NCBI GenBank assembly: GCA_030145425.1
Contig: JAQYVO010000195.1
Location: 48,756 to 112,755 of the forward strand
DNA: 64,000 bases
Reading direction: 5' to 3'
DNA from: Chromatiales bacterium
GTDB taxonomy: Bacteria; Pseudomonadota; Gammaproteobacteria; Chromatiales; Chromatiaceae
Part shown: piece after piece, positions 7,711 to 62,493 of the stretch
Numbering within the stretch: the stretch's first letter is position 1
How the letters are laid out: each line of letters opens with the position of its first letter
The notes under the pieces: generated by a model
What the model saw: only the letters and a program-made list of their open reading frames with translations
What the model was told of the DNA's origin: nothing
Databases searched by the model: none
Translations under genes and position numbers: made by a program

Positions 7711-9348
7711 ATGAGCGTCGATTTGCGCCGAAACCCGTGGAATCGGGAGATACCGGAATACTTCAATGTCGGCAGCGCCTGTACCGACGTCCAGGCTGAC
7801 TCGCCCGTCGCGGACCAGGTGGCCATGATTGTCGGGGATGACGCCCTGGGTACCAGCAACGCGACCTACCGGGAGCTTGCGAATCGCACCGACAGATTCG
7901 GGCAACTGTTGCGCAATCTGGAAATAGAAGCCGGCGAGCGTGTGCTGGTTCGCCTGCCAAACTGCCTGGATTATCCAACCGCATTTCTTGGTTCCATGAA
8001 GGCGGGGGCCGTCTCGGTACCCACTTCGACGCTCCTGGTGCCTGAGGAGGTAAATTACCTCGCGGAGAACTCTGGCGCCTCGGTTCTGGTCACCCATAAA
8101 TCCATGTGGGGGGAACTGGGCAGGGAACTCCAGGATTCAGGCGGGCTGCGTCATGTCCTGCTCTCGGGAGAGGGACCCATGCCGGAAAGCAGGGGCCATC
8201 CGCAACTGCACGATCTGGAGCAGGAACTGACGGCCATTACACGTTGGGACGAGCACTTCCCCACCCGCGCCAATGACCCGGCCTATCTCGTCTACACGTC
8301 CGGTACCACAGGCCATCCCAAAGGCGTGCTGCATGCGCACCGGGCACTGCTCGGTCGTCTCCCGGCCATGCGGCATTGGTTCGACTTCGAAGAGGGCGAC
8401 AGAATCCTGCACTCGGGCAAATTCAACTGGACCTACGCCCTGGGCACGGCCATGATGGATCCGCTGTTCCAGGGGAAGACCGTGGTGGTCCATGAAGGCG
8501 CCACCCAGGCAGACACCTGGCTGAAACTGATTGCGGCTCACGGATGTACCATTTTCATCGGTGTACCCAGAATCTTTCGTCAGATCGTCCAGTACACAAC
8601 CCTGGGCGCCGGCGATGTCCCGACGCTGAGACACTGCATGAGTGCCGGTGAACACCTGTCCGACGATTTGCGCCTCGCCTGGCGGAAACGATTCGATCTG
8701 GAGATCTACGAGGGCCTCGGCATGTCCGAGTGTTCCTACTACATTTCACAGGACAAAAGGCACCCGATCCGGCTGGGGTCTGCGGGCCGCATCCAGCCTG
8801 GCCATAAGGTGGCCCTGCTTGACGAGAATCGCAGGCCGGTACCGGATGGGAATGAGGGTATGATCTGCGTGGCCGAATCCGACCCGGGGCTTTTTCTGGG
8901 TTACTGGGATCAGCAGGATGAGACGATAACGGCATGCCAAAACGGCTGGTTCTATACCGGTGACTACGCCAGAAAGGACGAGGACGGCTACATCTGGTTT
9001 CTGGGCAGGCGTGACGACATCATCAACACGTTCGGATACCGGGTATCCCCCCAGGAGATTGAACGGGTGATGAAGACTCACCCCGATGTGTCGGACTGCG
9101 TCGCCATTGGTCAGGAAATAGAGGCGGAGAAAACACTGGTTGCCCTTTGCGTGATTCTGGAATCCGGCTCGCAGTCGGGCACGAAGGAACTCCTCGATTT
9201 CGGAGAACTGCATCTGGCATCCTACAAGTGTCCCAGGCTGGTACACATCATGGAAGACTTTCCGCGCACCAGAAACGGAAAGGTCTTGCGCGGCAGAATC
9301 AAACAGGAAATCGAGGCACATACTGGTACCCCGTCAATATCAGGTTGA
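7711..9348 (+). CDS. AMP-forming acyl-CoA synthetase/ligase (substrate unknown)
   Basis: 545 aa. Contains LVYTSGTTGHPKGVLH, GYWD, WFYTGDYARKDEDGYIWFLGRRDD and PRTRNGKVLR (A10 lysine present). Confidence 0.85.
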   Translation: MSVDLRRNPWNREIPEYFNVGSACTDVQADSPVADQVAMIVGDDALGTSNATYRELANRTDRFGQLLRNLEIEAGERVLVRLPNCLDYPTAFLGSMKAGAVSVPTSTLLVPEEVNYLAENSGASVLVTHKSMWGELGRELQDSGGLRHVLLSGEGPMPESRGHPQLHDLEQELTAITRWDEHFPTRANDPAYLVYTSGTTGHPKGVLHAHRALLGRLPAMRHWFDFEEGDRILHSGKFNWTYALGTAMMDPLFQGKTVVVHEGATQADTWLKLIAAHGCTIFIGVPRIFRQIVQYTTLGAGDVPTLRHCMSAGEHLSDDLRLAWRKRFDLEIYEGLGMSECSYYISQDKRHPIRLGSAGRIQPGHKVALLDENRRPVPDGNEGMICVAESDPGLFLGYWDQQDETITACQNGWFYTGDYARKDEDGYIWFLGRRDDIINTFGYRVSPQEIERVMKTHPDVSDCVAIGQEIEAEKTLVALCVILESGSQSGTKELLDFGELHLASYKCPRLVHIMEDFPRTRNGKVLRGRIKQEIEAHTGTPSISG

Positions 9349-9358
9349 CGGAGTACCA

Positions 9359-9380
9359 GGGCCTGTTAACACTATGCGGA
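9359..9380. repeat. 22-nt element GGGCCTGTTAACACTATGCGGA (half-site copy)
   Basis: Identical over 22 nt to 44902..44923. Lies in the 57-bp spacer between the acyl-CoA synthetase and mch. Confidence 0.7.
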
Positions 9381-9405
9381 AACAACCGAACAGGAAGAAA
9401 TAAAG

Positions 9406-10473
9406 ATGACTAAGACCTATCCGGGAAACTTCTTCGAGGACTTCAAACTGGGGCAGACACTTGTCCACGGTACGCCAAGGACCATTACAGAGGGGGATAT
9501 GGCGCTCTATATCGCCCTGACCGGTAGCCGTTTCCCCTTGCATTGCTCCCAGCCCATGGCCCGGCAGCTTGGATTGGAAGGTCAAACAGTGGATGATTTG
9601 TTGGCCTTCCACATGGCCTTCGGAAAGACTGTTGCCGACATCTCCTTTAACGCCGTCGCCAATCTGGGATATGCGGACATGCGCTTCACCAGGCCAGTCT
9701 ATCCTGGAGATACGCTGCAGTCGGTGAGTTCTGTAATCGGCCTCAAGGAAAATTCCAACGGAAAGAATGGAAACGTTTACGTGCGTTCCAACTGCCACAA
9801 CCAGAATGGGGAAGAGGTGCTTACCTGGGCGCGCTGGGTCATGGTAAACAAAAAAGACCCGAACTCACCCGTAGCGGAGGCCCGTATTCCGGAATTACCT
9901 TCCACGGTATCAGTGGAGGATCTGCCCATACCCCCCGGACTGGATCTTTCCGGCTACGACACGGATGTCACGGGCTCCCCCTATCTCTGGGAAGACTACC
10001 AGGCGGGTGAACGCATCGATCACATCAACGGCATGACGGTTGATGAATCCGACCACACGCTGGCCACTAAACTCTATCAAAACAATGCGCGCGTGCATTT
10101 CGAAGACTCGATGATGAAATCATCCCGATTCGGAAGACGGCTCATGTACGGTGGTCATGTCATATCCATCTGCCGGGCCCTGTCGTTCAATGGACTGGCC
10201 AACTCGGTTCGTATCGCCGCCATCAATTCCGGGGCCCACTGCAACCCGGCCTTCGCCGGAGACACCTTCTATGCCTACAGCGAGATCCTGGACAGCATGG
10301 AGCTTTCCGGACGCAAAGATGTCGGCGCCCTGAGAGTGCGCACTATCGGCCTGAAGAATATGGAAAGCAGCGAGTTGGAGGATCCCAAGGTGGAGATCGA
10401 CGGAAAGAAGCGCTACCACGAAAACGTGGTGCTGGATCTGGACTACACGGTGCTCATGCCGCGTAGATCTTGA
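9406..10473 (+). CDS. mch: Double MaoC-hotdog enoyl-CoA hydratase, mesaconyl-C1-CoA (beta-methylmalyl-CoA) hydratase-like
   Basis: 355 aa. PGNFFEDFKLGQTLVHGTPRTITEGD..., FGKTV.DIS.NA.ANLGY, RFGRRLMYGGHVIS..RALSFNGLAN and the C-terminus LDLDYTVLMPRRS match my recollection of Chloroflexus Mch in both sequence and length. Confidence 0.7.
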   Translation: MTKTYPGNFFEDFKLGQTLVHGTPRTITEGDMALYIALTGSRFPLHCSQPMARQLGLEGQTVDDLLAFHMAFGKTVADISFNAVANLGYADMRFTRPVYPGDTLQSVSSVIGLKENSNGKNGNVYVRSNCHNQNGEEVLTWARWVMVNKKDPNSPVAEARIPELPSTVSVEDLPIPPGLDLSGYDTDVTGSPYLWEDYQAGERIDHINGMTVDESDHTLATKLYQNNARVHFEDSMMKSSRFGRRLMYGGHVISICRALSFNGLANSVRIAAINSGAHCNPAFAGDTFYAYSEILDSMELSGRKDVGALRVRTIGLKNMESSELEDPKVEIDGKKRYHENVVLDLDYTVLMPRRS

Positions 10474-10521
10474 GGATACTTCCTAAACACAGGCTACCAA
10501 CTGAAAATTTATCCCTGATCG

Positions 10522-10836
10522 TCAGTCTTTGGGGCCTTTTCGTACGTGGAGGTAGAGCCGAAATTTCAAGAAGATACCCAGCACCATGGTACCCATAATA
10601 ACGGAGAGAATAATCAGGTTCAGGGTACCGTCCAGAATGAAAAGGCCCGCCTGAAAAAACAGGCTGAACCAGAAAAACAGGGCCGCTACCACCCAGAGTC
10701 TCTTGAGCCGCTCCCTTTCCTTTTCCCAGTCATTCTGTGGTTCCGGGGCCTGGCATTTGGGGCAGACACCGTCTTCGTCGGTCAGTGTTTCGCCACACTG
10801 GGGGCAGACGGGGGCTGCCTGTAATTCTGTATTCAT
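10522..10836 (-). CDS. Small membrane protein with N-terminal zinc ribbon (CPQCG..CPKC) and two predicted TM helices
   Basis: 104 aa. Two CxxC pairs followed by hydrophobic stretches WVVAALFFWFSLFF and LIILSVIMGTMVLGIFL. Confidence 0.5.
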   Translation of the reverse strand: MNTELQAAPVCPQCGETLTDEDGVCPKCQAPEPQNDWEKERERLKRLWVVAALFFWFSLFFQAGLFILDGTLNLIILSVIMGTMVLGIFLKFRLYLHVRKGPKD

Positions 10837-10895
10837 TTCCTAAAATGCCCTTACAAATAGATGTGAATGCCTACCTGACCCCCACAAAACCAAAA

Positions 10896-11303
10896 TCAGA
10901 AGACACCTTTAGCATTGAGATATTCCCCCAACTTCTTATCAAACTTCAGGACATGATTTAAAAACCAGTCGTTGGAAACATCGTAATCTGAATAGAAAGT
11001 GGGATACTTTCCCTTGGAGACAGCATTTACCAGCTGTTCCAGATGCTTTTGCAGTGACCTGTGTTCCTTGTGGTGCTTCTTCATCCGCTCGAATTTGTGT
11101 TCCTTCATCAGTTTTTCTTCGGTTTCGAAATGGTGGTACGTGAACTTGGCAAGATTGGCCAGCATCTTGCGCAGTTCATCCTTGTCTATCCTGGCTTCCA
11201 CAGCCCCATGCAGTTCGCCTACAAGCTCAAGTAACCTTTTATGCTGTTCGTCGATTTCCGCCACATTGATGCTGTATTCGTCAGACCAGGTAAGAATTGG
11301 CAT
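10896..11303 (-). CDS. Bacteriohemerythrin (hemerythrin-like metal-binding protein)
   Basis: 135 aa. W.DEYS..V.EIDEQHKRL, HF..EE..M and H..EH are typical hemerythrin His/Glu ligand spacings. The gene is visibly more A/T-rich than its neighbours. Confidence 0.85.
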   Translation of the reverse strand: MPILTWSDEYSINVAEIDEQHKRLLELVGELHGAVEARIDKDELRKMLANLAKFTYHHFETEEKLMKEHKFERMKKHHKEHRSLQKHLEQLVNAVSKGKYPTFYSDYDVSNDWFLNHVLKFDKKLGEYLNAKGVF

Positions 11304-11407
11304 ATCTTTATCGTCTCCAAATAAGATTCGTTATTATCACTCAAACACCAAATGCATTCCGTGATTGATCTCTGCCCTTAGCTTAGCGGACCGCAAAGAC
11401 CCGCTAT

Positions 11408-12355
11408 TTAATTTTTTTCCGAATCCAGAACCCCCTGTATGACGGAGGTCCAGGCATCGGCGATGCTTGCTCGGTTATAACCGCCGCCTCCAAGGGCCAG
11501 CAGACCCGCGATGCCAGGCTCAGCCGCCAGATCCGCGAGTTCTTTGGCGGCATGGTAATGAGCCTTGCTGCTAAAGGCCATATGCGTAATGGGATCTCCC
11601 GCTATGCTGTCGGCACCGCACTGCATAATGAGGAACTGTGGCTTATGATCCGCAATAAACGTCTTCACTTTGGGCCAAACCTCGAAGAAGATCTCATCGT
11701 CCGCTCCCGGCGGGAGCGGAACATTCAATTTCATACCCGCCGCATCCCCCCGGCCGATCTCATGAACACCTCCGGTGCCCGGGTAAAGGTATCTGCCATC
11801 CTCGTGGAGATCGGCAAATATGAGATTCTTATCGTATTCAAACGCGTAAAACACCCCATCTCCGTGATGGGCATCGATATCGACATAGCCGATGCGCTCA
11901 ACCCCATGTCGTTGCCTCAATGCCTCGATAGCAATCCCGATATCGTTGAAGACACAAAATCCGGCAGAACGATCTCTCTGGGCGTGATGCAGCCCTGCTA
12001 TCGGCACGAAGGCTGACTTGGTCTCCTTTCCGATAATCCTGTCCACTGCATCGAGTACGGTCCCGACCACATAAAGGGCCGACTCGCAGATGCCCCTGGC
12101 GGCCGGCGTATCCGGATCGAGCATTCCGGTTCCCTGCTCGGTCAGGGTCTCCACCCGCTGCACATATTCAGGGGTGTGAAACAGCAGCAGATCCTCCCGA
12201 GTGCCCGACACGGGTTCCCGGACCTCGACACGTTCTTTCAGACCTTTAGCCAGAAACGCCTGCCAGAAAGCATGGAATCTGTCCGGCCCGAATGGATGGC
12301 CATCTCCAAACCCGTAGCGAGCCAGCTCATCCCCTGCGTATACATATATACTCAC
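11408..12355 (-). CDS. Histone-deacetylase-family (AcuC/HDAH-like) Zn-dependent deacetylase
   Basis: Contains GLHHAQRDRSAGFCVFND, DIDAHHGDG and YPGTGG. The track ORF runs to 12532, but its N-terminal 59 aa look non-native. I prefer the GTG at 12355 (VSIYVYAGDE..), which is the usual start position for this family. Confidence 0.75.
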   Translation of the reverse strand: MSIYVYAGDELARYGFGDGHPFGPDRFHAFWQAFLAKGLKERVEVREPVSGTREDLLLFHTPEYVQRVETLTEQGTGMLDPDTPAARGICESALYVVGTVLDAVDRIIGKETKSAFVPIAGLHHAQRDRSAGFCVFNDIGIAIEALRQRHGVERIGYVDIDAHHGDGVFYAFEYDKNLIFADLHEDGRYLYPGTGGVHEIGRGDAAGMKLNVPLPPGADDEIFFEVWPKVKTFIADHKPQFLIMQCGADSIAGDPITHMAFSSKAHYHAAKELADLAAEPGIAGLLALGGGGYNRASIADAWTSVIQGVLDSEKN

Positions 12356-12618
12356 TCGCGACAACCTGCTGCCCTGAATATCCAGTGAAGGCGGAATTTC
12401 GGAATCTGGCTGCCTGCACTCGTATTCATCGAGATGCCGTTTGGTATGGCATGCCGCCTTAACACCGCAATATTTCAGGAATAATATGCTTTTTTGGGAT
12501 AAATGGGTATTGGGCGGCCCGCGGCAAAGCAACCTCCCGACCCTGTTCTGGAAGATCTGTACTAAAATCTGGATTGAAGCCGGGTTTCACCAAACCTGCT
12601 ATAGAGAGGAGGTGCAGC

Positions 12619-13089
12619 ATGTCGATTTCGCCGAGCCTGAAGGAATACCTTGATCAGCAGTCCGCCCGATATGAGACCGTATCCCACCCACACACCCTGT
12701 CGAGCGTGGACAGTGCCGCTGCCGCCCATGTCCCCAGCGAACAGCTTGCCAAGGCCGTGATCGTCAAGGAAGAGGAGGTTTATCTGATGGTGGTTGTCCC
12801 GTCCGACCATCATCTGCATCTGGGTCGCTTACACCACCATCTTGGTCATGAGGTGGGACTGGCGACAGAGGACGAGGTCTTCAATCTTTTCCCCGATTGT
12901 GACGAGGGGGCCATTCCCCCGGTTGGTGTCGCCTACGGATTCAGGACCCTGGTGGACTCCGATCTGATGGACCAATCCGATATCTTCTTCGAATCGGGTG
13001 ACCACCGGAATCTGATCAAGGTATCCGGTCAGCAGTTCTCAACACTGCTTGGCGGCGCCGAGCGGGTGCAGATGGGCCTTAATCTTTAA
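12619..13089 (+). CDS. YbaK/EbsC-like (aminoacyl-tRNA deacylase fold) protein with a His-rich loop
   Basis: The ATG at 12619 is preceded by GAGGAGG; the track ORF starts at 12574. Contains QLAKAVIVK, GAIPPVG and FFESGDH. Confidence 0.6.
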   Translation: MSISPSLKEYLDQQSARYETVSHPHTLSSVDSAAAAHVPSEQLAKAVIVKEEEVYLMVVVPSDHHLHLGRLHHHLGHEVGLATEDEVFNLFPDCDEGAIPPVGVAYGFRTLVDSDLMDQSDIFFESGDHRNLIKVSGQQFSTLLGGAERVQMGLNL

Positions 13090-13108
13090 GTCCCAACAAG
13101 ATAGCAAG

Positions 13109-14008
13109 TTAACTCCCCGCGGCCTTGACCTGATCCGCCTCCATGGCCTCGATCGCCTCCGCCATGCTCACAAGGCGTTGGGCACTCTCCACATGGAGGT
13201 TCTCGATCAGCATCCCGTCGACGACGGCAACGCCCTCTCCCTTCGCCTCCGCCTCTTCATGGGCCCGAATGATTTTTCTGGACCAATCGACGTCCTTTTG
13301 TGAAGGAGTGAAAACACGGTTGGTGGCCTCCACCGTCTTGGGATGAATAAGGGTCTTACCGTCAAAACCCATTTCCCTGCCCTGTTCGCAGGCATACTCG
13401 AATCCGTCATCGTCGTTGAGATCGAGAAAAACACCATCCAGGATCCCGATCTTGGCCGCTCGTGCGGCAAGCAGACAATGCCCGAGCGACGTGATCATGG
13501 GCAACCGTTCGCGGGTGTGGGCACAATCGAGATCCTTAGCCAGATCCGAGGTCCCCATCACCAGACATTCCATCCTGCTCGAGGCCTCTGTAATCATCTG
13601 AGCCCTGAGAATACTGCGCGGTGTTTCCATCATCGCCCAGATGGCCATTGAATCGGGAGCACCGCTGGCCACCATGATATTTTCCAGTTGCCGGATCGCA
13701 TCGGCACTCTCCACCTTGGGCAGCAGTATGGCGTTGGCACCGCTGGCTGCAGCGGCCGCCACGTCGGCATATCCCCAGGGTGTAGCCAGTCCGTTGACTC
13801 GGATCACCAGCTCACGCAAACCGTATCCGCCGGCCTTCACCGCATCGCACACCTGATTCCGGGCCTTCTCTTTGGCATCCGGTGCAACGGCATCCTCCAG
13901 GTCGAGTATCAGGCCGTCGGCCGGGAGCGTCCTCCCCTTCTCCAGTGCTCTGGCATTGGAACCGGGCATATAAAGAACGCTCCTGCGTGGCCTTGCAGTG
14001 TTCGGCAT
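13109..14008 (-). CDS. CitE/HpcH-family protein, Mcl2-like ((3S)-malyl-CoA thioesterase-like)
   Basis: The ATG at 14008 is preceded by AAGGAGA; the track ORF starts at 14074. RRSVLYMPGSNARALEK, LILDLEDAV, AMMETP, GTSDLAKDL, CEQGREMGFDGKTLIHP and GEGVAVVDGMLIENLHV resemble Rhodobacter Mcl2 as I recall it. Confidence 0.65.
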   Translation of the reverse strand: MPNTARPRRSVLYMPGSNARALEKGRTLPADGLILDLEDAVAPDAKEKARNQVCDAVKAGGYGLRELVIRVNGLATPWGYADVAAAAASGANAILLPKVESADAIRQLENIMVASGAPDSMAIWAMMETPRSILRAQMITEASSRMECLVMGTSDLAKDLDCAHTRERLPMITSLGHCLLAARAAKIGILDGVFLDLNDDDGFEYACEQGREMGFDGKTLIHPKTVEATNRVFTPSQKDVDWSRKIIRAHEEAEAKGEGVAVVDGMLIENLHVESAQRLVSMAEAIEAMEADQVKAAGS

Positions 14009-14231
14009 GATTCGAATCTCCTTGGAAACGGATGAAAAGATGTTGGACCCGAAGTGTAAAAAATTAGGCATCAACTGTCTAACCGTTGCCGAAAAAAAAC
14101 CGGCGAATGCCCTGCGCGTTGGCCGTAGTTTTGTCGTTGGCCGGCCGTGGGCTTAGAATTCACCCATTGACCCGTGTTCCTCCCTGTCGGCGAGTGACAC
14201 AGGTACCATCGAGGCCAGGAGAATAGCGACC

Positions 14232-15218
14232 GTGAGTTTCAAAACCATCCCCCACCGCACTCAGCGATTAAATCGAAGCACGCTGGCCGTCCCGGGATCC
14301 AAAACCGGCATTTTCGAAAAAGCTGCTGCCGGTGCCGCAGACGTTGTTTTCTTCGATCTGGAGGATTCGGTTCCGCCTGACAACAAGGAACAGGCACGCA
14401 GGGACGTAATCGCTGCATTGAATGACCTCAGCTTCCCCGGTAAAAGCGTGTCGGTGCGCATCAACGGCCTGGACACCCACTACATGTACCGGGATCTGGT
14501 GGATCTCGTGGAACAGGCGGGAGACAACCTGGACCTGGTCCTGGTGCCCAAGGTGGGTTGCGCCGCCGATGTCTACGCCGTGGATATGCTGCTCACCCAG
14601 ATCGAGCGCGCCATGGGCATACGAAAAGCTATCGGCATCGAGATGCTTATCGAGACGCCGCTGGGCATTCAAAACGCCGATGAAATTGCCGCTGCCTCAC
14701 CCCGAAATGAGAGTATGCTCTTCGGCTCAGCCGATTATGCCGCGTCATCCGGTATGCAGATCAAGATGATCGGAGGTCCCAATCCCGACTACCAGGTACT
14801 GACGGATCCGGATGCAGACGGCACCCGCCGGACCCATTGGGGGGATATGTGGCATTACCCCCTTGCCCGCCTGGTGGCTGCCGCCCGGGCGAACGGGTTG
14901 CGGCCCGTCGACGGCCCGTTTGCCGATATCAGGGATCCGGACGGCTGGCTGGCCAGTGCGAAACGGGCCAGGACCCTGGGATTCGAGGGCAAGATGGTCA
15001 TACATCCAAGCCAGATCGAACCGGCCAACCGGTTATTCAAGCCCTCCGCCCTGGAGTTGGACCAGGCGCGCCGTATCCTGGAGGCCATGGAACTGGCCGA
15101 AAAAAGGGGTGCGGGCGCCGTGAGCCTGGATGGTAAGATGATCGACATCGCCTCAATCAGACAGGCGGAGGCTACCGTAAGGAAAGCCGAACTTGCCGCC
15201 GCAAAGGATGTCTCCTGA
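14232..15218 (+). CDS. CitE/HpcH-family L-malyl-CoA/beta-methylmalyl-CoA lyase, proteobacterial Mcl1-like
   Basis: 328 aa. GTG start with AGGAGAA 8 nt upstream. Contains FDLEDSVPPDNKEQAR, SVRINGLDT.YMYRDLVDLVEQAGDNLD, VPKVGCAADVYAVD, VDGPFADI and GKMIDIASIRQAE. Confidence 0.7.
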   Translation: MSFKTIPHRTQRLNRSTLAVPGSKTGIFEKAAAGAADVVFFDLEDSVPPDNKEQARRDVIAALNDLSFPGKSVSVRINGLDTHYMYRDLVDLVEQAGDNLDLVLVPKVGCAADVYAVDMLLTQIERAMGIRKAIGIEMLIETPLGIQNADEIAAASPRNESMLFGSADYAASSGMQIKMIGGPNPDYQVLTDPDADGTRRTHWGDMWHYPLARLVAAARANGLRPVDGPFADIRDPDGWLASAKRARTLGFEGKMVIHPSQIEPANRLFKPSALELDQARRILEAMELAEKRGAGAVSLDGKMIDIASIRQAEATVRKAELAAAKDVS

Positions 15219-15292
15219 AACTGTGGATGATCAGTGCAGGATGAAAAATTGTAATTCCCGGTATGACCGCGAATAACTGATGAATAATTTTG

Positions 15293-15365
15293 AACCGCGA
15301 GGGTACAAAGACGCAGTGAGGATTTTTTCATAGATTTTTCTCTGTGTCTTTGTGCCTCTGTGGTT
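15293..15365 (+). repeat. Long imperfect hairpin in the mcl1-like/mcl spacer
   Basis: Arms AACCGCGAGGGTACAAAGACGCAGTGAG (15293..15320) and CTCTGTGTCTTTGTGCCTCTGTGGTT (15340..15365). Several positions pair as G-U only in plus-strand RNA. Confidence 0.6.
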
Positions 15366-15442
15366 GGTACTAATGGAATGTCGCACTGACTTTCTGAGGT
15401 CATGCGGACATTCGGAAGTAAAACGACTGGAGAGAATGACAG

Positions 15443-16486
15443 ATGAAAATCCCCTCAGATTTTTTCAAGCCCCTCGCCATTGGCGCACCCGATCCCATCC
15501 GTGAACTGCCCGTTACGCTGGAACGCACCATCCACTTCCTGCCGCCGCATATCGAAAAGATGCGTGCCAAGGCCGGTCAGATCGCAAAGAACGTGGATGT
15601 GTTGCTGGGCAATCTGGAAGATGCCATTCCGGTCGAGGCCAAGGAAGCAGCGCGCTCCGGATTCATTGAGGTGGCCAAGGCAGTGGACTTCGGTCAGACC
15701 GGCCTCTGGACCCGCGTCAATGCCCTGAACAGCCCCTGGTTTCTGGACGACATGACCGAAATTGTTGCGGAGGTGGGCGACAAACTGGACGTCGTGATGA
15801 TCCCCAAGGTGGAAGGCCCCTGGGATATCCATTTCGTCGACCAGCTGCTCGCACTCCTGGAGGCCCGCCACGGGGTGCGCAAGCCTATCCTGATACATGC
15901 CATTCTGGAAACCGCCCAGGGCGTGAAGAATGTCAACGAGATAGCCCAGGCCAGCCCGCGCATGCACGGCATGAGTCTGGGGCCAGCGGACCTGGCCGCC
16001 TCCAGGGGGATGAAGACCACCCGGGTGGGCGGCGGCCACCCCTTCTACGGCGTGCTGGCTGACCCCGGCGAGGAAAATGAGGCAAGGGCTTTCTATCAGC
16101 AGGATCTTTGGCACTACACCATAGCGCGCATGGTGGATGCCTGCCTGTCCAATGGACTGCGCGCCTTCTACGGCCCGTTCGGCGATTTTCAGGACGGTGC
16201 GGCCTGCGAAGCCCAGTTCCGCAATGCCTTTATACAGGGCTGTGCCGGTGCCTGGACGCTCCATCCGAATCAGATTGAGATCGCCAAACGGGTCTTCAGT
16301 CCCGAGGTGAATGAAGTGCTCTTCGCCAAACGCATCCTGGAGGCCATGCCCGACGGCACAGGAGCGGTGATGATCGATGGAAAGATGCAGGACGACGCCA
16401 CCTGGAAACAGGCCAAGGTGATCGTGGACCTGGCCAGGCTGGTAGCCAGCAAAGATCCGGAAAGGGCAACTGCCTACGGCTTCTGA
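15443..16486 (+). CDS. mcl: Trifunctional-type malyl-CoA/beta-methylmalyl-CoA/citramalyl-CoA lyase, Chloroflexus-type
   Basis: 347 aa. Contains [108 protein letters not shown] and [23 protein letters not shown]. This is near-colinear with Chloroflexus aurantiacus Mcl as I recall it. Confidence 0.75.
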
Positions 16487-16512
16487 GATTCGATCTGACG
16501 GGGGGGCGCATC

Positions 16513-17751
16513 ATGTACAAGATCCTGGACGGCCTGCGGGTGGTGGAGGCGTCTGCGTTCGTCGCCGCCCCGCTCGGGGGAATGACATTGGCGCAACTCG
16601 GCGCGGATGTCATCCGCTTCGATCCGCCCGTCGGGGGATTGGATGCCAGAAGATGGCCCATCACAAAGGACGGTAAAAGCCTCTATTGGGTGGGGCTGAA
16701 CAAGGGAAAGCGGTCCCTGGCCATTGATACGAGAAAGCCGGAAGGCCAGGAAATCCTGACCCGTCTCATCACAGCCCCGGGTGAAGGTAACGGCATCTTC
16801 CTTACCAATTTCCACGCCGACAAGGGCTGGATGAGTTATGAGGAACTCAGGAAGCACCGGGAAGATCTCATCATGGTCAACCTGGTCGGCAACTCTGACG
16901 GCAGTTCAGCGGTGGACTATACGGTCAACTGTGCCGCCGGTTTCCCCTATGTAACGGGAAACCATCATGCCGACGGACCGCCTCATCCGGTCGACCACGT
17001 CTTTCCGGCGTGGGATGCGATGGCCGGCATCAACCTGGCCCTGGCCATACTGGCCGCTGAACGCCACCGTCGTCTGACCGGGGAGGGCCAACTGGTCCGG
17101 CTGGCTTTGTCGGACATCACCTTTGCCATGACCGGCAACCTGGGTTTCATCCAGGAGGTGCAGATCAACCACGAGGAGCGGAAAGGCTACGGCAATTATC
17201 TGTACGGTGCTTTCGGCAACGAGTTCGAAACCAGGGACGGGCGGCTGATCTATATCATCGCGGTTACAGATCACATGTGGAAATCCCTTCTCACAGCCAC
17301 CGGCCTGGGTGTGGATATCGGCAATATAGAACAAAGACTGGGACTGGATTTCACCAAAGAAGGCGACCGCTTTGCCGCCAGTGAGGAGATCTCCGTGCCC
17401 ATCCATGAATGGTGCGCCAAATATACCCTGGAACAGATCGGGGAGATATTCAAACTCCGGCACGTCTGTTGGGGGCCTTACAGGACCTTTCGACAAATGC
17501 TCGACGAGGACCCCCGCGTCTCCACCGAAAACCCCATATTTTCCGAACTGGAGCAGCCGGGCATTGGCAGTTTTCTGGTCCCGGGTTCGCCTATCAGCTT
17601 CGGGGCATTTACACGACAGCCACCACGGCGGGCCCCGCTCCTGGGTGAGCACACGGATGAGATATTGGGGGACGACCTGGGGCTGAGCGATAAGGAGATA
17701 GGCCGCTTGCGTGAAGACGGCGTGGTTGCTGGACCGGTGGAAATCCAATGA
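16513..17751 (+). CDS. mct: Class III (CaiB/BaiF) CoA-transferase, mesaconyl-CoA C1-C4 CoA-transferase-like
   Basis: 412 aa. N-terminus L.GLRVVE.SAFVAAP.GGM.LAQLGADVIRFD is the family III signature. Its position between mcl and meh matches the Chloroflexus gene order. Confidence 0.65.
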   Translation: MYKILDGLRVVEASAFVAAPLGGMTLAQLGADVIRFDPPVGGLDARRWPITKDGKSLYWVGLNKGKRSLAIDTRKPEGQEILTRLITAPGEGNGIFLTNFHADKGWMSYEELRKHREDLIMVNLVGNSDGSSAVDYTVNCAAGFPYVTGNHHADGPPHPVDHVFPAWDAMAGINLALAILAAERHRRLTGEGQLVRLALSDITFAMTGNLGFIQEVQINHEERKGYGNYLYGAFGNEFETRDGRLIYIIAVTDHMWKSLLTATGLGVDIGNIEQRLGLDFTKEGDRFAASEEISVPIHEWCAKYTLEQIGEIFKLRHVCWGPYRTFRQMLDEDPRVSTENPIFSELEQPGIGSFLVPGSPISFGAFTRQPPRRAPLLGEHTDEILGDDLGLSDKEIGRLREDGVVAGPVEIQ

Positions 17752-18602
17752 CGATGGAGGGCGCCAGACCTTTGGCAGACTGGGTCGGTTCACGGGAGAT
17801 CCGGGAAGAGGTTATCTCCCCGTTTCCCGCACAGGCCGCTGCAGCCATGCTGGATCTCGGGGGTACACGGATGGACCAGGGTGACCCCCTGCCCCCACTG
17901 TGGCACTGGTTCTATTTTCTGCCCAAGGCCCTGCGCTCTGAGATTGATAAAGACGGTCATCCGAAGCGTGGCGGTTTTTTCCCGCCCGTCGAACTGCCGA
18001 GACGCATGTTCGCCGGCGCGAGAACCCGTTTTATCGAACCCGTTATCATCGGGGAGTCCGCCGCCCGGGAAGGGGAGATTCTCAAGGTCTCAGAAAAATC
18101 CGGCAAGAGCGGACGGCTGGTGTTCGTTACAGTACGTTACCGGATCAGTCAGGCCGGCAGGCTTCGAGTCGAAGAGGAACAGGATATCGTCTACAAGGAG
18201 CCGGGGGCGCCAATCCAGGCACCCGTGCCGGTGGAGCACCCGGCAGCAGTCGATTCGAAATCCTGGGTAAAGGAGATCCGTCCGGATACGGTTCTGCTTT
18301 TCAGATTTTCGGCATTGACCTTCAATGCCCACCGCATTCATTACGACAGACCCTATGCGCTCCGGGAGGAAGGCTATCCCGGCCTGGTGGTGCACGGACC
18401 CTTGACTGCAGTCATGCTTGCGGGATTGGTCGGGGAACACAGCACCAGGGCTATCGGCAGCTTCAAATTTCAGGGCCGAGCACCCCTTTTCGATCTGCTT
18501 CCCTTCCGCCTCATCGGCCGACCGGAAGGAGACTCCGTGGTTCTGGAGGCAAAGGGGCCGGACGATTCCATCGCAATGCAGGCCCACGCGGAGTTGATTT
18601 GA
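17748..18602 (+). CDS. meh: MaoC/FAS1-like hotdog hydratase, mesaconyl-C4-CoA ((S)-citramalyl-CoA) hydratase-like
   Basis: 284 aa. Start overlaps the mct stop (ATGA). Contains PLPPLWHWFYFLP, DGHPKRGGFFPP, RRMFAGAR, EEEQDIVY.EPGAP, LLFRFSALTFNAHRIHYDRPYA and EGYPGLVVHGPL. Confidence 0.65.
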   Translation: MTMEGARPLADWVGSREIREEVISPFPAQAAAAMLDLGGTRMDQGDPLPPLWHWFYFLPKALRSEIDKDGHPKRGGFFPPVELPRRMFAGARTRFIEPVIIGESAAREGEILKVSEKSGKSGRLVFVTVRYRISQAGRLRVEEEQDIVYKEPGAPIQAPVPVEHPAAVDSKSWVKEIRPDTVLLFRFSALTFNAHRIHYDRPYALREEGYPGLVVHGPLTAVMLAGLVGEHSTRAIGSFKFQGRAPLFDLLPFRLIGRPEGDSVVLEAKGPDDSIAMQAHAELI

Positions 18603-18635
18603 CCGGATATTGACAACAACGACAGGAGAGCGGCC

Positions 18636-20588
18636 ATGAACAGCAAGATCGTCACCGCTGATGAAGCAGTCGCACTGATTCAGGATGGCAATACCTTATG
18701 TTGTAACGGTTTTGTACAAAGCGGTTATCCCGACGCACTCTTAGAGGCTCTGGAACGCCGCTTTCTGGAAACCGGATCCCCAAGGAACCTCACACTGTTC
18801 GCAGCTGCCGGGCAGTCAGACGGCAAAACCAAGGGCACAAACCGGCTCGGCCACGAAGGCCTGCTCCGTCGTGTCGTCAGCGGCAACTGGGGCCGCATGC
18901 CCAATGTGGTGAAACTGGCCCGGGAGAACAAGATATACGGTTACAACCTGCCCCAGGGGGTCATCTGCCAGCTTTACCGGACCCGGGCCAGTGGTCAGCC
19001 GGGCCTGTTCTCCAAGATCGGTCTGAACACCTTCGTGGACCCCCGCCTCGAAGGTGGCAGGATCAACGAGATCACCACCAAGGATATCGTCAATCTGGTT
19101 AATATCGATGGTGAAGAGTGGCTCTTCTACAAAGTCGGCACCGTGGACGTGGCTTTCATCCGCGGCACCACCGCCGATCCGTCCGGCAACATCACCATGG
19201 AAAAGGAGGCCATGCCTCTGGACAACCTTGCCCAGGCCATGGCGGTAAAGAACTCCAACGGTATCGTCATCGCCCAGGTGGAGCGCATTGCCGAGCAGAA
19301 TTCCCTGAATTCCCGGGATGTTAAAATCCCCGGCATCCTGGTGGATTGCCTGGTGGTGGCCGAAAAGCCGGAACATCACATGATCAACTGCGGATCACAG
19401 TACGACCCTGCACTGGCTGGTGAGATCCGGGTTCCCCTGACATCCCTGAAACCCATGCCCCTGGACGCCCGCAAGATCATGGCCCGGCGTGCAGCTTTCG
19501 AGTTGCCGCCGAACGGCATCGTCAATCTCGGCGTTGGAGTCCCCGAAGGGGTGGCCGCCGTGGCCAACGAGGAGAAGATCACACAGTACATCACGCTGAC
19601 TTCCGAGGCGGGAACCATCGGCGGCGTACTGGCCAGCGGTGCCAGTTTCGGGGCGGGCGTCAACGTGGATGCGGTAATCGATCAGAATCAGCAGTTCGAT
19701 TTCTACGACGGCGGCGGGCTGGATATGGCCTGCCTGGGAATGGCCGAGTGTGATGAACGGGGCAATGTCAACGTCAGCCGATTCGGAGACCGGCTTATCG
19801 GCTGCGGCGGGTTCATCAATATCTCCCAGAATGCCCGCTGCATGGTGTTCACCGGCACCTTTACCGCCGGTGGACTCAAGATAGGCATCGAAGACGGCAA
19901 GGTCAGGATTCTTCAGGAAGGCAAGGTCCGGAAGTTCGTCAGGCAGGTCAAGCAGGTATCATTCAGCGGTGATTTCTCGGTGACCCGTAAGCAGCCCGTC
20001 TATTTCGTCACCGAACGTTGCGTATTTCGCAGGGGATTGCGGGGACTGGTCCTGACAGAAGTTGCACCGGGTATCGATATCGAGCGGGATATACTGGCCC
20101 ATATGGATTTTATGCCGAAAATCCGGGATCCGGTTCTCATGGACGGACGCATTTTCCATGAGGACAACATGAACCTGGAAGCCGAGCTGCTCAATTTGTC
20201 ATTGCCGGACCGTATCAGTTATGACGCAACCCGCAACATGCTCTTTATCAACCTGGAGGGACATTACCTCCGGGTTAGGGAAGACATCGCCACGTTGCGC
20301 GATCTGCTGGTCAACCGCTGCAAGAAGATAGGAAAACGGGTGGGTGTATTCATTAACTACAATTCGTTTCGGATCAACGAGAACATTGTAGACGATTATG
20401 CGGACATGGACCGCTACATGCTGGAACACTACTACACCACCATCACCCGCTACGCCACCAGCGCCTTCATGCGCATGAAACTGGATCAGGCCTTTTCGGA
20501 GCGGGATATCGCACCCCATGTTTTTGAAAGAAAGGAGGAGGCCCAGGCATTTCTCACCTCGAACGGAACGGAATCCGGCGCCCCTTGA
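18636..20588 (+). CDS. Fused alpha/beta class I acyl-CoA:carboxylate CoA-transferase (YdiF/Pct-like) with about 130-aa C-terminal extension
   Basis: 650 aa. Contains GF...GYP, ITLTSEAGTIGG (catalytic Glu context) and DFYDGGGLD. The C-terminal region LNLSLPDRISYD...TRYATSAFMRMKL lies beyond the usual length of about 520 aa. Confidence 0.75.
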   Translation: MNSKIVTADEAVALIQDGNTLCCNGFVQSGYPDALLEALERRFLETGSPRNLTLFAAAGQSDGKTKGTNRLGHEGLLRRVVSGNWGRMPNVVKLARENKIYGYNLPQGVICQLYRTRASGQPGLFSKIGLNTFVDPRLEGGRINEITTKDIVNLVNIDGEEWLFYKVGTVDVAFIRGTTADPSGNITMEKEAMPLDNLAQAMAVKNSNGIVIAQVERIAEQNSLNSRDVKIPGILVDCLVVAEKPEHHMINCGSQYDPALAGEIRVPLTSLKPMPLDARKIMARRAAFELPPNGIVNLGVGVPEGVAAVANEEKITQYITLTSEAGTIGGVLASGASFGAGVNVDAVIDQNQQFDFYDGGGLDMACLGMAECDERGNVNVSRFGDRLIGCGGFINISQNARCMVFTGTFTAGGLKIGIEDGKVRILQEGKVRKFVRQVKQVSFSGDFSVTRKQPVYFVTERCVFRRGLRGLVLTEVAPGIDIERDILAHMDFMPKIRDPVLMDGRIFHEDNMNLEAELLNLSLPDRISYDATRNMLFINLEGHYLRVREDIATLRDLLVNRCKKIGKRVGVFINYNSFRINENIVDDYADMDRYMLEHYYTTITRYATSAFMRMKLDQAFSERDIAPHVFERKEEAQAFLTSNGTESGAP

Positions 20589-20885: not shown

Positions 20886-20986
20886 GTAATTAGATACGGC
20901 TCGATTCCGGGATTCTTGAGTTGACCGAGATCACAAAACTGTAGAAAAACGGGCTCGTTCCCTGATCCAGTGGGTAAATTTCAGTT

Positions 20987-21108
20987 GTAGGGCCGAATTC
21001 ATTCGGCCAGCAGCCATTATTACCATTGCACAAACAGGGTGATGGGGTTTGCCTTGCCTGGGTTGTGATGTCTGATCATATGCATTGGTCGAATGAATTC
21101 GACCCTAC
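20987..21108. repeat. REPIN-like pair of inverted REP hairpins (GTAG ... CTAC)
   Basis: GTAG-GGCCGAA-TTCA-TTCGGCC at 20987..21008 and GGTCGAA-TGAA-TTCGACC-CTAC at 21087..21108 are in inverted orientation about 78 bp apart. Confidence 0.7.
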
Positions 21109-21184
21109 ATGCTCCCCGGGTAAAGTAAAAAGCCTCAGGTGAGATGATTCTTTGATTTGTGGATTGTGAGGCAGGGATTGATTC

Positions 21185-41547: not shown

Positions 41548-41701
41548 GTGTTTCAACCTCATTTCTGCTGCATGGTATTTCGGCAGGGAAAACAAAAAGT
41601 TGAGTATGATTCCAGCTATGCCATTAGATTCCCAGGCAGGGGATTCCGTATAGCGATCGACAACGTTATAGGATCAATGGTTTAGGATGCTGGCCGACCG
41701 G

Positions 41702-44846: not shown

Positions 44847-44901
44847 TGATTCAGTCTCCAGCTAACTTCCAACACAAGGTCCGGATCAGGTTATGCATCC
44901 G

Positions 44902-44947
44902 GGGCCTGTTAACACTATGCGGATATCCACATAGTGTTAACAAGCCC
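44902..44947. repeat. 46-bp near-perfect palindrome built from the 22-nt GGGCCTGTTAACACTATGCGGA element
   Basis: Reads GGGCCTGTTAACACTATG-CGGATATCCA-CATAGTGTTAACAAGCCC. It abuts the isp2 stop codon. A further 6-bp hairpin CCGGAT..ATCCGG lies at 44881..44902. Confidence 0.8.
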
Positions 44948-47965: not shown

Positions 47966-47996
47966 AAACTTCTCCTCCGATGCCCCTGACAAATCC

Positions 47997-62488: not shown

Positions 62489-62493
62489 CTCTT

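Follow-up and report, generated by a model that had tools for sequence, protein, structure and literature searches.

What would enzymes of the Chloroflexus 3-hydroxypropionate bi-cycle do in a gammaproteobacterium? The question is raised by a 64,000-nucleotide stretch of DNA from a Chromatiales bacterium (hereafter the window), in which an initial annotation recognized four core genes of the bi-cycle's glyoxylate-assimilation half: mch and the run mcl-mct-meh. Checking the open reading frames (ORFs) placed all four where they had been reported, with the sizes claimed, and every quoted peptide was found in the translations. Two further CitE-like genes (13109–14074 and 14232–15218) had been missed, as had the membership of mch and an acyl-CoA synthetase gene in a separate module. 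On homology, we assign the set as glyoxylate-assimilation enzymes of the Chloroflexus type in a gammaproteobacterial, sulfur-bacterium-like genome. Its features, named by homology, are as follows.

7711–9348, + strand: AMP-forming acyl-CoA synthetase (545 aa; Pfam AMP-binding and AMP-binding_C)
9406–10473, + strand: Mch, double-hotdog hydratase (355 aa; 449 bits to 4e3e)
13109–14074, − strand: CitE-like, thioesterase-like paralog (HpcH_HpaI match; Glu for catalytic Asp)
14232–15218, + strand: Mcl1-type malyl-/beta-methylmalyl-CoA lyase (401 bits to 5ugr)
15443–16486, + strand: Mcl, Chloroflexus-type trifunctional malyl-/beta-methylmalyl-/citramalyl-CoA lyase (347 aa; 629 bits to 4l7z)
16513–17751, + strand: Mct, class III CoA-transferase (412 aa; 524 bits to 8apq)
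17748–18602, + strand: Meh, mesaconyl-C4-CoA hydratase (284 aa; 58% identical to a Chloroflexus sp. MS-G gene)
18636–20588, + strand: YdiF/propionate-CoA-transferase-type family I CoA-transferase (650 aa; 456 bits to 2ahu)
43125–47992: uptake hydrogenase, in the same 64-kb window

The meh and mct reading frames share 4 bp, and the intergenic gaps (mcl-mct, 26 bp; mct-meh, −4 bp; meh-transferase, 33 bp) suggest that mcl, mct, meh, and the transferase gene form one transcription unit. Housekeeping genes in gamma-like order surround the cluster, and its nearest named homologs come from Thiohalocapsa, Chromatiaceae, Ca. Thiosymbion, and Sedimenticola, both of which fit a gammaproteobacterial context. 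Horizontal acquisition had been proposed for these genes. A recent event is not visible, since GC content is even over the whole window and the cluster lacks flanking mobile-element genes, although the patchy distribution of the genes across phyla supports old transfers. Among the genomic features cited alongside them, the uptake hydrogenase is present, whereas frd and oadB were not found among the window ORFs scanned.

Mcl, Mct, and Meh resemble Chloroflexus enzymes

Mcl matched C. aurantiacus Mcl (4l7z) with an E value of 1.9e-188 and 78% identity over 345 residues (BLASTP), and the next family, Rhodobacter Mcl1, scored 202 bits against the 629 obtained here. Alignment with C. aurantiacus Mcl found Glu60, Asp61, Arg92, Glu157, Asp184, and Asp318, which the literature gives as essential, all kept. 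For Mct, the matches to C. aurantiacus Mct 8apq (524 bits; E 2.7e-156; 60% identical by BLASTP) and to 7xkg (517 bits) were followed by formyl-CoA transferases at about 95 bits. The NCBIfam model TIGR04253 gave Mct 543 bits, which is under the curated cut-off of 725 yet four times what any other family reached. We took Mct residues from the 8apq alignment and checked them against the residue list of PMC9813914. This paired catalytic Asp165 with D168, Arg47 with R47, Tyr136 with Y136, and Leu43 with L43, and further Arg75 with R74, Asn100/Phe101 with N99/F100, and Arg104 with K104. Asp165, Arg47, Tyr136, and Leu43 are published as essential and define the intramolecular enzyme; judging from this alignment, all are kept. 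The window's Mct is also 65–80% identical to Mct of related thiotrophic Gammaproteobacteria.

Meh gave no Pfam or NCBIfam match. It is 58% identical to the gene at the meh position of Chloroflexus sp. MS-G (locus L078) and 57% to that of locus L069 (tblastn), and fragments in its 90% cluster carry the JGI name "3-methylfumaryl-CoA hydratase". Its best solved relative is the homologous, Pseudomonas-type itaconyl-CoA hydratase (8huc/8khg, 198 bits; 42% identical to 8huc by BLASTP), and this relative lends itself to a reading in which the cluster chiefly catabolizes C5 dicarboxylates (itaconate, mesaconate, citramalate, or methylsuccinate). Activation of the free acid would fall to the class I transferase or to the synthetase, Meh would act as itaconyl-CoA or mesaconyl-C4-CoA hydratase, and Mcl, as (S)-citramalyl-CoA lyase, would yield pyruvate and acetyl-CoA. 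Mesaconyl-C4-CoA hydratase activity occurs in itaconyl-CoA hydratases too, so functions overlap in the family, and itaconate degradation, like the pathway we favor, finishes with a CitE-like lyase cleaving (S)-citramalyl-CoA. A CoA-transferase gene lies immediately 3′ of meh, and the synthetase gene, immediately 5′ of mch and CitE-fused in one relative, would suit a role in activating a dicarboxylate, mesaconate for example. We nevertheless judge this reading unlikely. Meh is nearer its Chloroflexus sp. ortholog than itaconyl-CoA hydratase, and scores for RipB/Ich and RipC/Ccl fall far under their cut-offs (for Mcl on the RipC/Ccl model, 121 bits against 375). The transferase lies outside the itaconate CoA-transferase families, the short-chain acyl-CoA transferase YdiF being its closest characterized relative. 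Moreover, itaconate degradation by Ict/Ich/Ccl, as in Pseudomonas aeruginosa and Yersinia pestis, has no role for Mct and Mch, yet both accompany the operon as conserved members, Mct with its intramolecular-specific residues.

Two additional CitE-like proteins

The product of 14232–15218 is 59% identical to 5ugr (401 bits) and 53% identical to Rhodobacter Mcl1 4l9y (344 bits), has all six catalytic and metal-binding residues intact, Asp318 included, and shares 73–86% identity with the same-position gene in loci L001–L010 and L023. On these similarities we assign it as a proteobacterial Mcl1-type malyl-/beta-methylmalyl-CoA lyase, encoded by the first gene of the operon (module A).

The product of the adjacent, divergent gene at 13109–14074 is just 33% identical to Mcl1-type lyases. 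In a MAFFT alignment with C. aurantiacus Mcl it retains Glu60, Asp61, Arg92, Glu157, and Asp184 but has Glu at the Asp318 position, as do its orthologs in loci L084 and L002. The metal-binding residues and catalytic Arg are common to all three CitE-like proteins, and the catalytic Asp is present in both lyases. An Asp-to-Glu change at this catalytic position is found in the malyl-CoA thioesterase cluster only (PMC3832036), and on this one hallmark residue the protein is probably an Mcl2-like (3S)-malyl-CoA thioesterase. Translation probably begins at an ATG at 14008, giving 299 aa; the full-length ORF sequence has no entry in the protein collection searched, which fits a shorter real gene. In Rhodobacter sphaeroides, Mcl1 and Mcl2 are a malyl-CoA lyase and a thioesterase that make up the "apparent malate synthase" of the ethylmalonyl-CoA pathway. 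The window's pair resembles them in the 53% identity to Mcl1 and the Mcl2-cluster substitution, but the window holds no other ethylmalonyl-CoA pathway gene.

A separate synthetase-Mch module and an extended CoA-transferase

Mch matched 4e3e with an E value of 6.7e-134 (449 bits; 58% identical by BLASTP) and 8hgn, a "beta-methylmalyl-CoA dehydratase", with 410 bits, the next solved relative scoring 58 bits; 4e3e is itself 92% identical to the gene adjoining mcl in Chloroflexus sp. MS-G. The operon reads mcl1-mcl-mct-meh-pct-mch in its relatives from Chromatiaceae, Sedimenticolaceae, Magnetococcales, and SAR324, and the arrangement mcl1-mcl-mct-meh-(pct)-mch is shared by Chromatiaceae, Thiohalocapsa, Sedimenticolaceae, Pseudohaliea, Magnetococcales, and SAR324. 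In the window the operon lacks an mch of its own, and the mch that is present stands 5 kb away, behind the acyl-CoA synthetase gene. Its product is 75–79% identical to Sedimenticola paralogs, only 48–59% to the operon Mch of relatives, and less like Chloroflexus Mch than the latter are (58% versus 65–67%). By these comparisons we place it as the paralog of an "Acs-Mch" module (module B) and not as an ortholog of the operon Mch. The synthetase reached no NCBIfam cut-off, and its best solved relatives, anthranilate/benzoate-CoA ligases, scored only about 200 bits. Four Sedimenticola-like genomes each encode a synthetase 61–65% identical to it directly upstream of this Mch paralog, and one of these homologs is fused to a CitE-like domain. 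By this conservation we assign the window's synthetase gene as the first of the Acs-Mch pair, separate from the operon.

The gene previously called a class I CoA-transferase does encode a family I enzyme, for which a fuller identity can now be given. Its product aligns with E. coli YdiF (2ahu) over residues 5–512 (456 bits; 43% identical), E324 aligning with the catalytic YdiF Glu333, and is 78–82% identical to proteins encoded at the corresponding place in the operons of Magnetococcales, SAR324, Sedimenticolaceae, and Chromatiaceae. It differs from YdiF, a 531-residue single chain, in being embedded in the mcl-mct-meh operon and in bearing a conserved C-terminal extension of about 140 aa (about 20148–20585). 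All homologs of 643–668 aa, named propionate CoA-transferase or acyl CoA:acetate/3-ketoacid CoA transferase, carry this extension, which has no Pfam match. An AlphaFold model of it has a pLDDT of 75.7, with a well-ordered core at 86–97, and almost all of its top ~30 PDB matches are SpoIIAA/STAS folds, though weak ones (TM about 0.45–0.56, best E 0.016). We predict a STAS-like domain.

A partial bi-cycle, probably for glyoxylate assimilation

Mcr is a protein of about 1200 aa and Pcs one of about 1800 aa. ORFs in the window run to at most 792 aa, so neither can be encoded there, in keeping with the earlier view that a full bi-cycle is unsupported. Neither the window nor the sequence within 10 kb of the operon of the proteobacterial relatives checked contained an SmtAB-like class III paralog, and the window has no gene for glycolate oxidase, propionyl-CoA carboxylase, or methylmalonyl-CoA mutase. 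The entire second cycle is present in the window, and near-complete sets of bi-cycle genes beyond Chloroflexota are reported by one MAG survey, for some Burkholderiales; even so, a complete autotrophic 3-hydroxypropionate bi-cycle is highly improbable here, and the described gammaproteobacterial carriers likewise lack Mcr and Pcs genome-wide.

The likeness to the second cycle of C. aurantiacus extends to the same four families at 58–78% identity, shared Mcl and Mct catalytic residues, and clustering of mcl, mct, and meh. These identities, with matches to solved structures well past what chance would give and a very large score gap to the next families, support the pathway assignment and bear out the central claim of the initial annotation. 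The window differs in gene order and in lacking Mcr, Pcs, and SmtAB, where Chloroflexus-type loci have two class III paralogs beside mct; it adds the Mcl1-type lyase, the thioesterase-like CitE, the STAS-tailed transferase, and the acyl-CoA synthetase.

We think it probable that the region is a proteobacterial version of the bi-cycle's glyoxylate-assimilation half joined by two accessory functions. Propionyl-CoA would come from the YdiF/Pct-type transferase (with CoA from acetyl-CoA or succinyl-CoA), the AMP-forming synthetase, or both (step 1), and would be condensed with glyoxylate to beta-methylmalyl-CoA by Mcl or the Mcl1-type lyase (step 2). Mch would dehydrate this to mesaconyl-C1-CoA (step 3), Mct would shift the CoA intramolecularly to give mesaconyl-C4-CoA (step 4), Meh would hydrate the latter to (S)-citramalyl-CoA (step 5), and Mcl would cleave it to pyruvate and acetyl-CoA (step 6). 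The Mcl1-type lyase and the divergent thioesterase-like CitE may then serve jointly as a two-enzyme malate synthase, converting this acetyl-CoA and a second glyoxylate to malate (step 7), for a net conversion of two glyoxylate and propionyl-CoA to pyruvate, malate, and CoA. Close homology to characterized enzymes and conserved catalytic residues underlie steps 2–6; steps 1 and 7, like the flux direction, are inferred.

The lyase and hydratase steps of the bi-cycle's second half are reversible, and the Mct mechanism allows esterification of either mesaconate carboxyl group. With steps 2–6 all reversible, the direction could be either. The same enzymes might run mainly in reverse, as in the citramalate cycle, an established proposal for acetate assimilation: pyruvate and acetyl-CoA would pass through citramalyl-CoA, mesaconyl-C4-CoA, mesaconyl-C1-CoA, and beta-methylmalyl-CoA to glyoxylate and propionyl-CoA. 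From glyoxylate and a second acetyl-CoA, the Mcl1-type lyase and the thioesterase-like paralog would then make malate, the gene of the latter adjoining the operon and its hydrolysis of malyl-CoA pulling the route irreversibly forward. Acetate is listed by Seah et al. among the substrates that the partial pathway could assimilate. No gene in the window tells one direction from the other; the transferase and the synthetase are more obviously suppliers of acyl-CoA inputs such as propionyl-CoA. We regard predominantly reverse operation as a real but lesser possibility; it is compatible with the glyoxylate-assimilation reading, and a cell could run both directions.

Partial bi-cycles with neither Mcr nor Pcs have been published for Ca. 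Thiosymbion/Olavius gamma1 symbiont, Ca. Kentron, Ca. Competibacter, and "Pink Berry" Chromatiaceae, and expression of the genes is reported in Ca. Kentron. The window has the same enzymes in the same bacterial class, likewise without Mcr or Pcs, and is a new example of this partial pathway already described in related sulfur-oxidizing Gammaproteobacteria. In the symbiont genomes examined the genes are more scattered, with just mcl-mct-meh together in Ca. T. oneisti and an isolated mct in Kentrum, whereas the window joins the operon, minus its own mch, to the Acs-Mch module. The transferase, the Mcl1/thioesterase pair, and the Acs-Mch module go unmentioned in the passages of the published accounts considered. 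For Ca. Kentron and Ca. Thiosymbion these accounts propose that glyoxylate, acetate, propionate, and succinate are assimilated, the same kind of small organic acid role as the initial annotation had suggested. In this bacterium the set would serve mixotrophic assimilation or interconversion of C2–C4 acids (glyoxylate/glycolate, propionate, and acetate) rather than autotrophic CO2 fixation.

Chloroflexus-type lyase, transferase, and hydratase genes in the window

The six open reading frames (ORFs) named in the initial annotation are present at the coordinates it gave, and the peptides it quoted occur in their translations. It had overlooked two further CitE-like genes, which lie between mch and mcl (13109-14074 on the minus strand and 14232-15218 on the plus strand). 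Together these genes comprise:

7711-9348, plus strand: acyl-CoA synthetase (545 aa)
9406-10473, plus strand: Mch-like double-hotdog hydratase (355 aa)
13109-14074, minus strand: CitE-like paralog, putative thioesterase
14232-15218, plus strand: Mcl1-type lyase (mcl1)
15443-16486, plus strand: predicted Mcl (347 aa)
16513-17751, plus strand: predicted Mct (412 aa)
17748-18602, plus strand: predicted Meh (284 aa)
18636-20588, plus strand: CoA-transferase with a C-terminal extension (650 aa)

The best solved relative of the 347-aa lyase is 4l7z (629 bits; next family, 202 bits), which is identified as Chloroflexus aurantiacus Mcl in PMC3832036. Identity between the two is 78% over 345 residues (BLASTP), within the range of at least 57% published for the MCLC cluster of CitE-like enzymes (PMC3832036). 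Zarzycki and Kerfeld list Glu60, Asp61, Arg92, Glu157, Asp184, and Asp318 as the lyase residues (PMC3832036), and all six are conserved in our alignment. Identity and residues both argue for membership in this trifunctional cluster.

For the 412-aa CoA-transferase, the best solved relative is C. aurantiacus Mct (8apq; 524 bits, 60% identity by BLASTP), with the next family at about 95 bits. Pfister et al. trace the intramolecular reaction of Mct to several residues (PMC9813914): the catalytic Asp165; Arg47 and Tyr136, by which the free carboxylate is held; Leu43, which constricts the tunnel; and Arg75, Asn100, Phe101, and Arg104, which clamp CoA. At position 43, we accepted Leu or Ile as narrowing the tunnel. 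Aligned to 8apq, the window protein carries D168, R47, Y136, and L43 at the first set of positions and R74, N99, F100, and K104 at the clamp; 16 homologs all share D168, R47, and Y136. This pattern is that expected of an intramolecular transferase. The protein scored 542.6 bits against the NCBIfam equivalog model TIGR04253, short of the 725-bit cut-off and about four times the score of the next NCBIfam family; because that family reaches only 134 bits, the model appears to be tuned to Chloroflexi-like sequences.

The 284-aa hydratase, whose gene overlaps mct by 4 bp, matched no Pfam or NCBIfam family. Its best solved relatives are the itaconyl-CoA hydratases 8huc and 8khg (198 bits, with no next family). 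BLASTP against 8huc gave 42% identity, below the 58% (tblastn) shared with the Meh-position gene of Chloroflexus sp. MS-G. Greater similarity to the Chloroflexus-type protein and adjacency to mct both point to Meh. Equivalog-level matches to RipB/Ich and RipC/Ccl of an itaconate (Ict/Ich/Ccl) cluster were absent from the window: RipB_Ich was matched solely by Mch, at 116 bits against a cut-off of 340, and scores for RipC_Ccl were 121-178 bits against a cut-off of 375. A catabolic role in C5-dicarboxylate metabolism is possible for meh, the 650-aa transferase, and the synthetase, but it leaves the conserved Mct unexplained.

A paralogous Mch in a synthetase-linked module

The best solved relative of the 355-aa protein is 4e3e (449 bits, 58% identity by BLASTP; next family, 58 bits), itself 92% identical to the gene adjoining mcl in Chloroflexus sp. 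MS-G; the score against 8hgn, a "beta-methylmalyl-CoA dehydratase," was 410 bits. With Pfam domains MaoC_dehydratas and MC_hydratase, a predicted fused double (R)-hydratase/MaoC fold, a length of about 350 aa, and similarity to characterised Mch, the protein fits Mch. The Chloroflexus-type character that the initial annotation ascribed to Mcl, Mct, Mch, and Meh is thereby borne out, at 78%, 60%, and 58% identity by BLASTP for the first three and 58% by tblastn for the last.

Gene order in the closest proteobacterial loci is mcl1-mcl-mct-meh-(pct)-mch, where pct encodes a YdiF/Pct-type transferase. The window Mch shares 48-59% identity with the operon Mch at nine comparison loci (L001-L009) and 75-79% with Acs-linked paralogs of the Sedimenticola group, values that place it as a paralog rather than an ortholog of the operon enzyme. 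We found no second Mch, mch remnant, or SmtAB-like paralog in the window by tblastn, and 3' of the transferase gene, mch is replaced by ~750 bp of non-coding DNA followed by a tRNA-Ser gene. Within this gap, where relatives have mch, sits a 124-bp element (20986-21109) with 24-nt inverted terminal arms that are 92% complementary and 76 nt apart; the arm sequence has no other copy in the window. This element, perhaps a small mobile or repetitive sequence, may mark the site of a rearrangement.

In four Sedimenticola-like genomes, the Mch paralog is preceded by an acyl-CoA synthetase 61-65% identical to that of the window, usually with a degenerate CitE-like protein encoded between the two and further CitE-like genes alongside; in L087, one of the four, the synthetase and the CitE-like protein form a single fusion protein. 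The CitE-like proteins of L085 (9091-10023), L088 (7076-7996), and L087 (5456-8023, C-terminal part) carry His/Gln, Glu, Asn, and Gln where Mcl has Glu60, Asp61, Asp184, and Asp318, and they probably cannot bind Mg2+ or run the usual lyase reaction. A Sedimenticolaceae genome (OZ245019.1) has both modules in separate places, each with its own Chloroflexus-type Mcl, and the window looks like a junction of the two.

Orthology of the synthetase with PrpE, Acs, or MatB was rejected: it reached no curated cut-off, and its best solved relatives are aryl-CoA ligases (~200 bits). Between the Acs-Mch and CitE genes lie four others (10522-13089), which encode a zinc-ribbon membrane protein, a hemerythrin-like protein, a histone-deacetylase-family protein (11408-12532), and a YbaK-like editing-domain protein. 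Some bacteria use histone-deacetylase-family enzymes to restore activity to acetylated AMP-forming acyl-CoA synthetases, and a regulatory link between this gene and the neighbouring synthetase is conceivable. A hemerythrin gene is also found downstream of mch at the Chromatiaceae locus L089.

A divergent CitE-like pair and a CoA-transferase with an extra domain

The product of 14232-15218 shares 59% identity with 5ugr, a malyl-/beta-methylmalyl-CoA lyase, and 53% with Rhodobacter Mcl1, and the alignment shows all catalytic residues present. That of the divergent gene, 13109-14074, reaches only 33% against these lyases. Its metal-binding residues and the Arg are retained, but Glu replaces the catalytic Asp, as it does in the orthologs at two comparison loci (L084 and L002). 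This Asp corresponds to Asp318 of C. aurantiacus Mcl and Asp299 of Rhodobacter Mcl1, and its substitution by Glu is the sole exception in the superfamily, confined to the R. sphaeroides malyl-CoA thioesterase cluster (PMC3832036). By this single hallmark residue, the 13109-14074 product looks like a member of the (3S)-malyl-CoA thioesterase (Mcl2) cluster; because the substitution is confined to that cluster, the divergent pair looks like an Mcl1/Mcl2 "two-enzyme malate synthase."

The 650-aa transferase is 43% identical to E. coli YdiF (2ahu) over residues 5-512 (456 bits). Its E324, in "LTSEAGTIGG," aligns with the Glu of "LTVETGPIGG" in YdiF, which we take to be the catalytic Glu333. As a single chain with both CoA_trans halves and this Glu, the protein is predicted to be a family I, YdiF/Pct-type enzyme. 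Homologs of 643-668 aa, named propionate CoA-transferase or acyl CoA:acetate/3-ketoacid CoA transferase, all possess the C-terminal extension (~140 aa), which has no Pfam match. An AlphaFold model of the extension from 23 sequences had a mean pLDDT of 75.7 (core, 86-97), and almost all of the top ~30 PDB matches in a fold search were SpoIIAA/STAS proteins. These matches were weak (TM about 0.45-0.56, E at best 0.016), and we treat a STAS-like fold as a lead. Transferase-Mch fusions were also considered and rejected, as the homologs of 1041-1050 aa are tandem CoA-transferase duplications. Transferase identity is 78-82% across Magnetococcales, SAR324, Sedimenticolaceae, and Chromatiaceae, higher than that of Mct (68-72%) or Meh (57-69%) at the same loci; by this measure the transferase is the best conserved of the three.

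Distribution of the operon

Scanning one genome per species turned up Mct relatives at no fewer than 576 loci, and the groups represented include Gamma- and Alphaproteobacteria, Magnetococcales, SAR324, Actinomycetota, and Chloroflexota; the best match to the window Mct among GTDB representative genomes was 82%. Versions of the operon in sampled symbionts are fragmented, and no flanking gene that would name a substrate (glycolate oxidase, propionyl-CoA carboxylase, transporters) is common to the relatives. The window encodes just one class III CoA-transferase. SmtAB-like class III paralogs are likewise missing from the 10 kb around mct in four relatives (L002, L004, L007, and L023), whereas two class III paralogs are present at each of the Chloroflexus-type loci L078 and L069. 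L069 is recorded as Roseiflexus sp. isolate SKYG45, and its Mcl, Mct, and Mch share 91-94% identity with those of C. aurantiacus, about as much as the Chloroflexus sp. MS-G proteins do (92-95%); the genus label of this metagenome-assembled genome may be wrong.

Many genomes of Solirubrobacterales, Pseudonocardiales, and other Actinomycetota (L025-L080) carry an Mct relative 56-62% identical to that of the window. Beside it are only distant MaoC-like (~30%) and CitE-like (~40%) genes, and neither Meh nor a Chloroflexus-type Mcl is encoded within 10 kb, a pattern suggesting that the transferase is the core of another pathway in these bacteria.

Seah et al. 2019 describe Ca. Kentron as having and expressing most bi-cycle genes without Mcr (malonyl-CoA reductase) or Pcs (propionyl-CoA synthase); other carriers named there are Ca. 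Thiosymbion, Ca. Competibacter, "Pink Berry" Chromatiaceae, Ca. Riegeria, and Ca. Accumulibacter, and the role proposed is assimilation of organic substrates. Paredes et al. 2021 make a matching proposal for Ca. T. oneisti, with glyoxylate, acetate, and propionate as the substrates named. The cluster adds one more case to this already described partial bi-cycle. What novelty there is lies in three less-described features, all of them putative: the extra domain carried by the transferase, the pairing of a lyase with a thioesterase, and the module of synthetase and Mch.

Genomic setting

The initial annotation considered horizontal acquisition probable. Old transfers would account for the scattered taxonomic distribution, an argument that the literature has already made; recent transfer is not demonstrated, because GC content is even (0.51-0.60) and no integrase or transposase lies near the cluster. 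Neighbouring genes have housekeeping functions (serS, rarA, lolA, ftsK, holB, tmk, mltG, pabC, fabF/G/H, plsX, pheST, infC, and thrS). An Rfam search of the window returned two tRNAs and no other structured RNA, and promoter and terminator counts were not above shuffled expectation, giving no firm operon boundaries.

Elsewhere in the window, 1536-2285 (plus strand) encodes the rhodoquinone biosynthesis methyltransferase RquA (309 bits; curated cut-off, 175). Rhodoquinone supports fumarate reduction under low oxygen and could connect to the supply of succinate and propionyl-CoA for the pathway. It is drawn in the metabolic scheme for Ca. Thiosymbion oneisti in Paredes et al. 2021. A [NiFe] uptake hydrogenase operon (43125-47992, minus strand) has two genes inserted between those for its small and large subunits:

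46871-47992, minus strand: small subunit
46212-46874, minus strand: TmcC/HmcE-like membrane protein
44947-46215, minus strand: DsrK-like Fe-S protein
43125-44846, minus strand: large subunit

We take this arrangement to resemble the hynS-isp1-isp2-hynL layout of purple sulfur bacteria, and the DsrK-like gene may be what had been called frd. Directly downstream of the large subunit gene, a 469-aa ORF (41702-43111, minus strand) has no Pfam or NCBIfam match, nor does the plus-strand ORF that overlaps it (41687-42685). A molybdopterin oxidoreductase in the region of 58237-60291 (minus strand) and 60596-63468 (plus strand) reached no curated cut-off, its best match being formate dehydrogenase alpha (267 bits); it adjoins an XrtA/PEP-CTERM-associated ATPase-like gene and a T2SSB-domain gene.

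Predicted pathway and implications

Judged from the homology of the encoded proteins, the steps from glyoxylate and propionyl-CoA to pyruvate and acetyl-CoA are well supported, and would proceed through beta-methylmalyl-CoA, mesaconyl-C1-CoA, mesaconyl-C4-CoA, and (S)-citramalyl-CoA. The Mcl1-type lyase and the thioesterase-like paralog would convert a second glyoxylate and that acetyl-CoA to malate, for a net yield of pyruvate, malate, and CoA from two glyoxylate and one propionyl-CoA, with the acyl-CoA input presumably furnished by the transferase, the synthetase, or both. Because the steps are reversible, the enzymes could instead run in the manner of a citramalate cycle and assimilate acetate. 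Extension of the route from glyoxylate and propionyl-CoA to a complete autotrophic bi-cycle is unsupported, in keeping with the initial annotation, because the window's ORFs reach 792 aa at most (PheT); the scanned ORFs are neither Mcr- nor Pcs-like.

We put forward only tentatively, and as rather doubtful, the proposal that the proteobacterial operon mcl1-mcl-mct-meh-pct-mch is more than a piece of the Chloroflexus pathway and constitutes a distinct, self-contained variant, that Acs-Mch is a separate pathway, and that the two have been joined here. Under this proposal, the STAS-tailed YdiF/Pct-type transferase may replace SmtAB, either recycling acetyl-CoA to activate propionate or activating malate, and the Mcl1/Mcl2-like pair may drain acetyl-CoA into malate. 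The Sedimenticola-like module, with its synthetase (sometimes fused to a degenerate CitE-like domain), Mch paralog, and CitE-like lyases, may serve a C5 or C4 dicarboxylate pathway; here the module and the operon seem to have been brought together and the operon's mch lost.

Chloroflexus versions of these enzymes are used by engineers in synthetic photorespiration bypasses. In a sulfur- and hydrogen-oxidising bacterium, the gene set would bring glyoxylate/glycolate, propionate, and acetate into central metabolism without carbon loss, and it bears on the extent of mixotrophy in "chemoautotrophic" Gammaproteobacteria, a point already made for symbionts. To this the window adds comparative detail open to laboratory tests, namely an operon of six conserved genes, a lyase and a thioesterase that likely form a "malate synthase" pair, and a separate synthetase-hydratase module, along with a well-conserved CoA-transferase bearing an extra, apparently uncharacterised domain.
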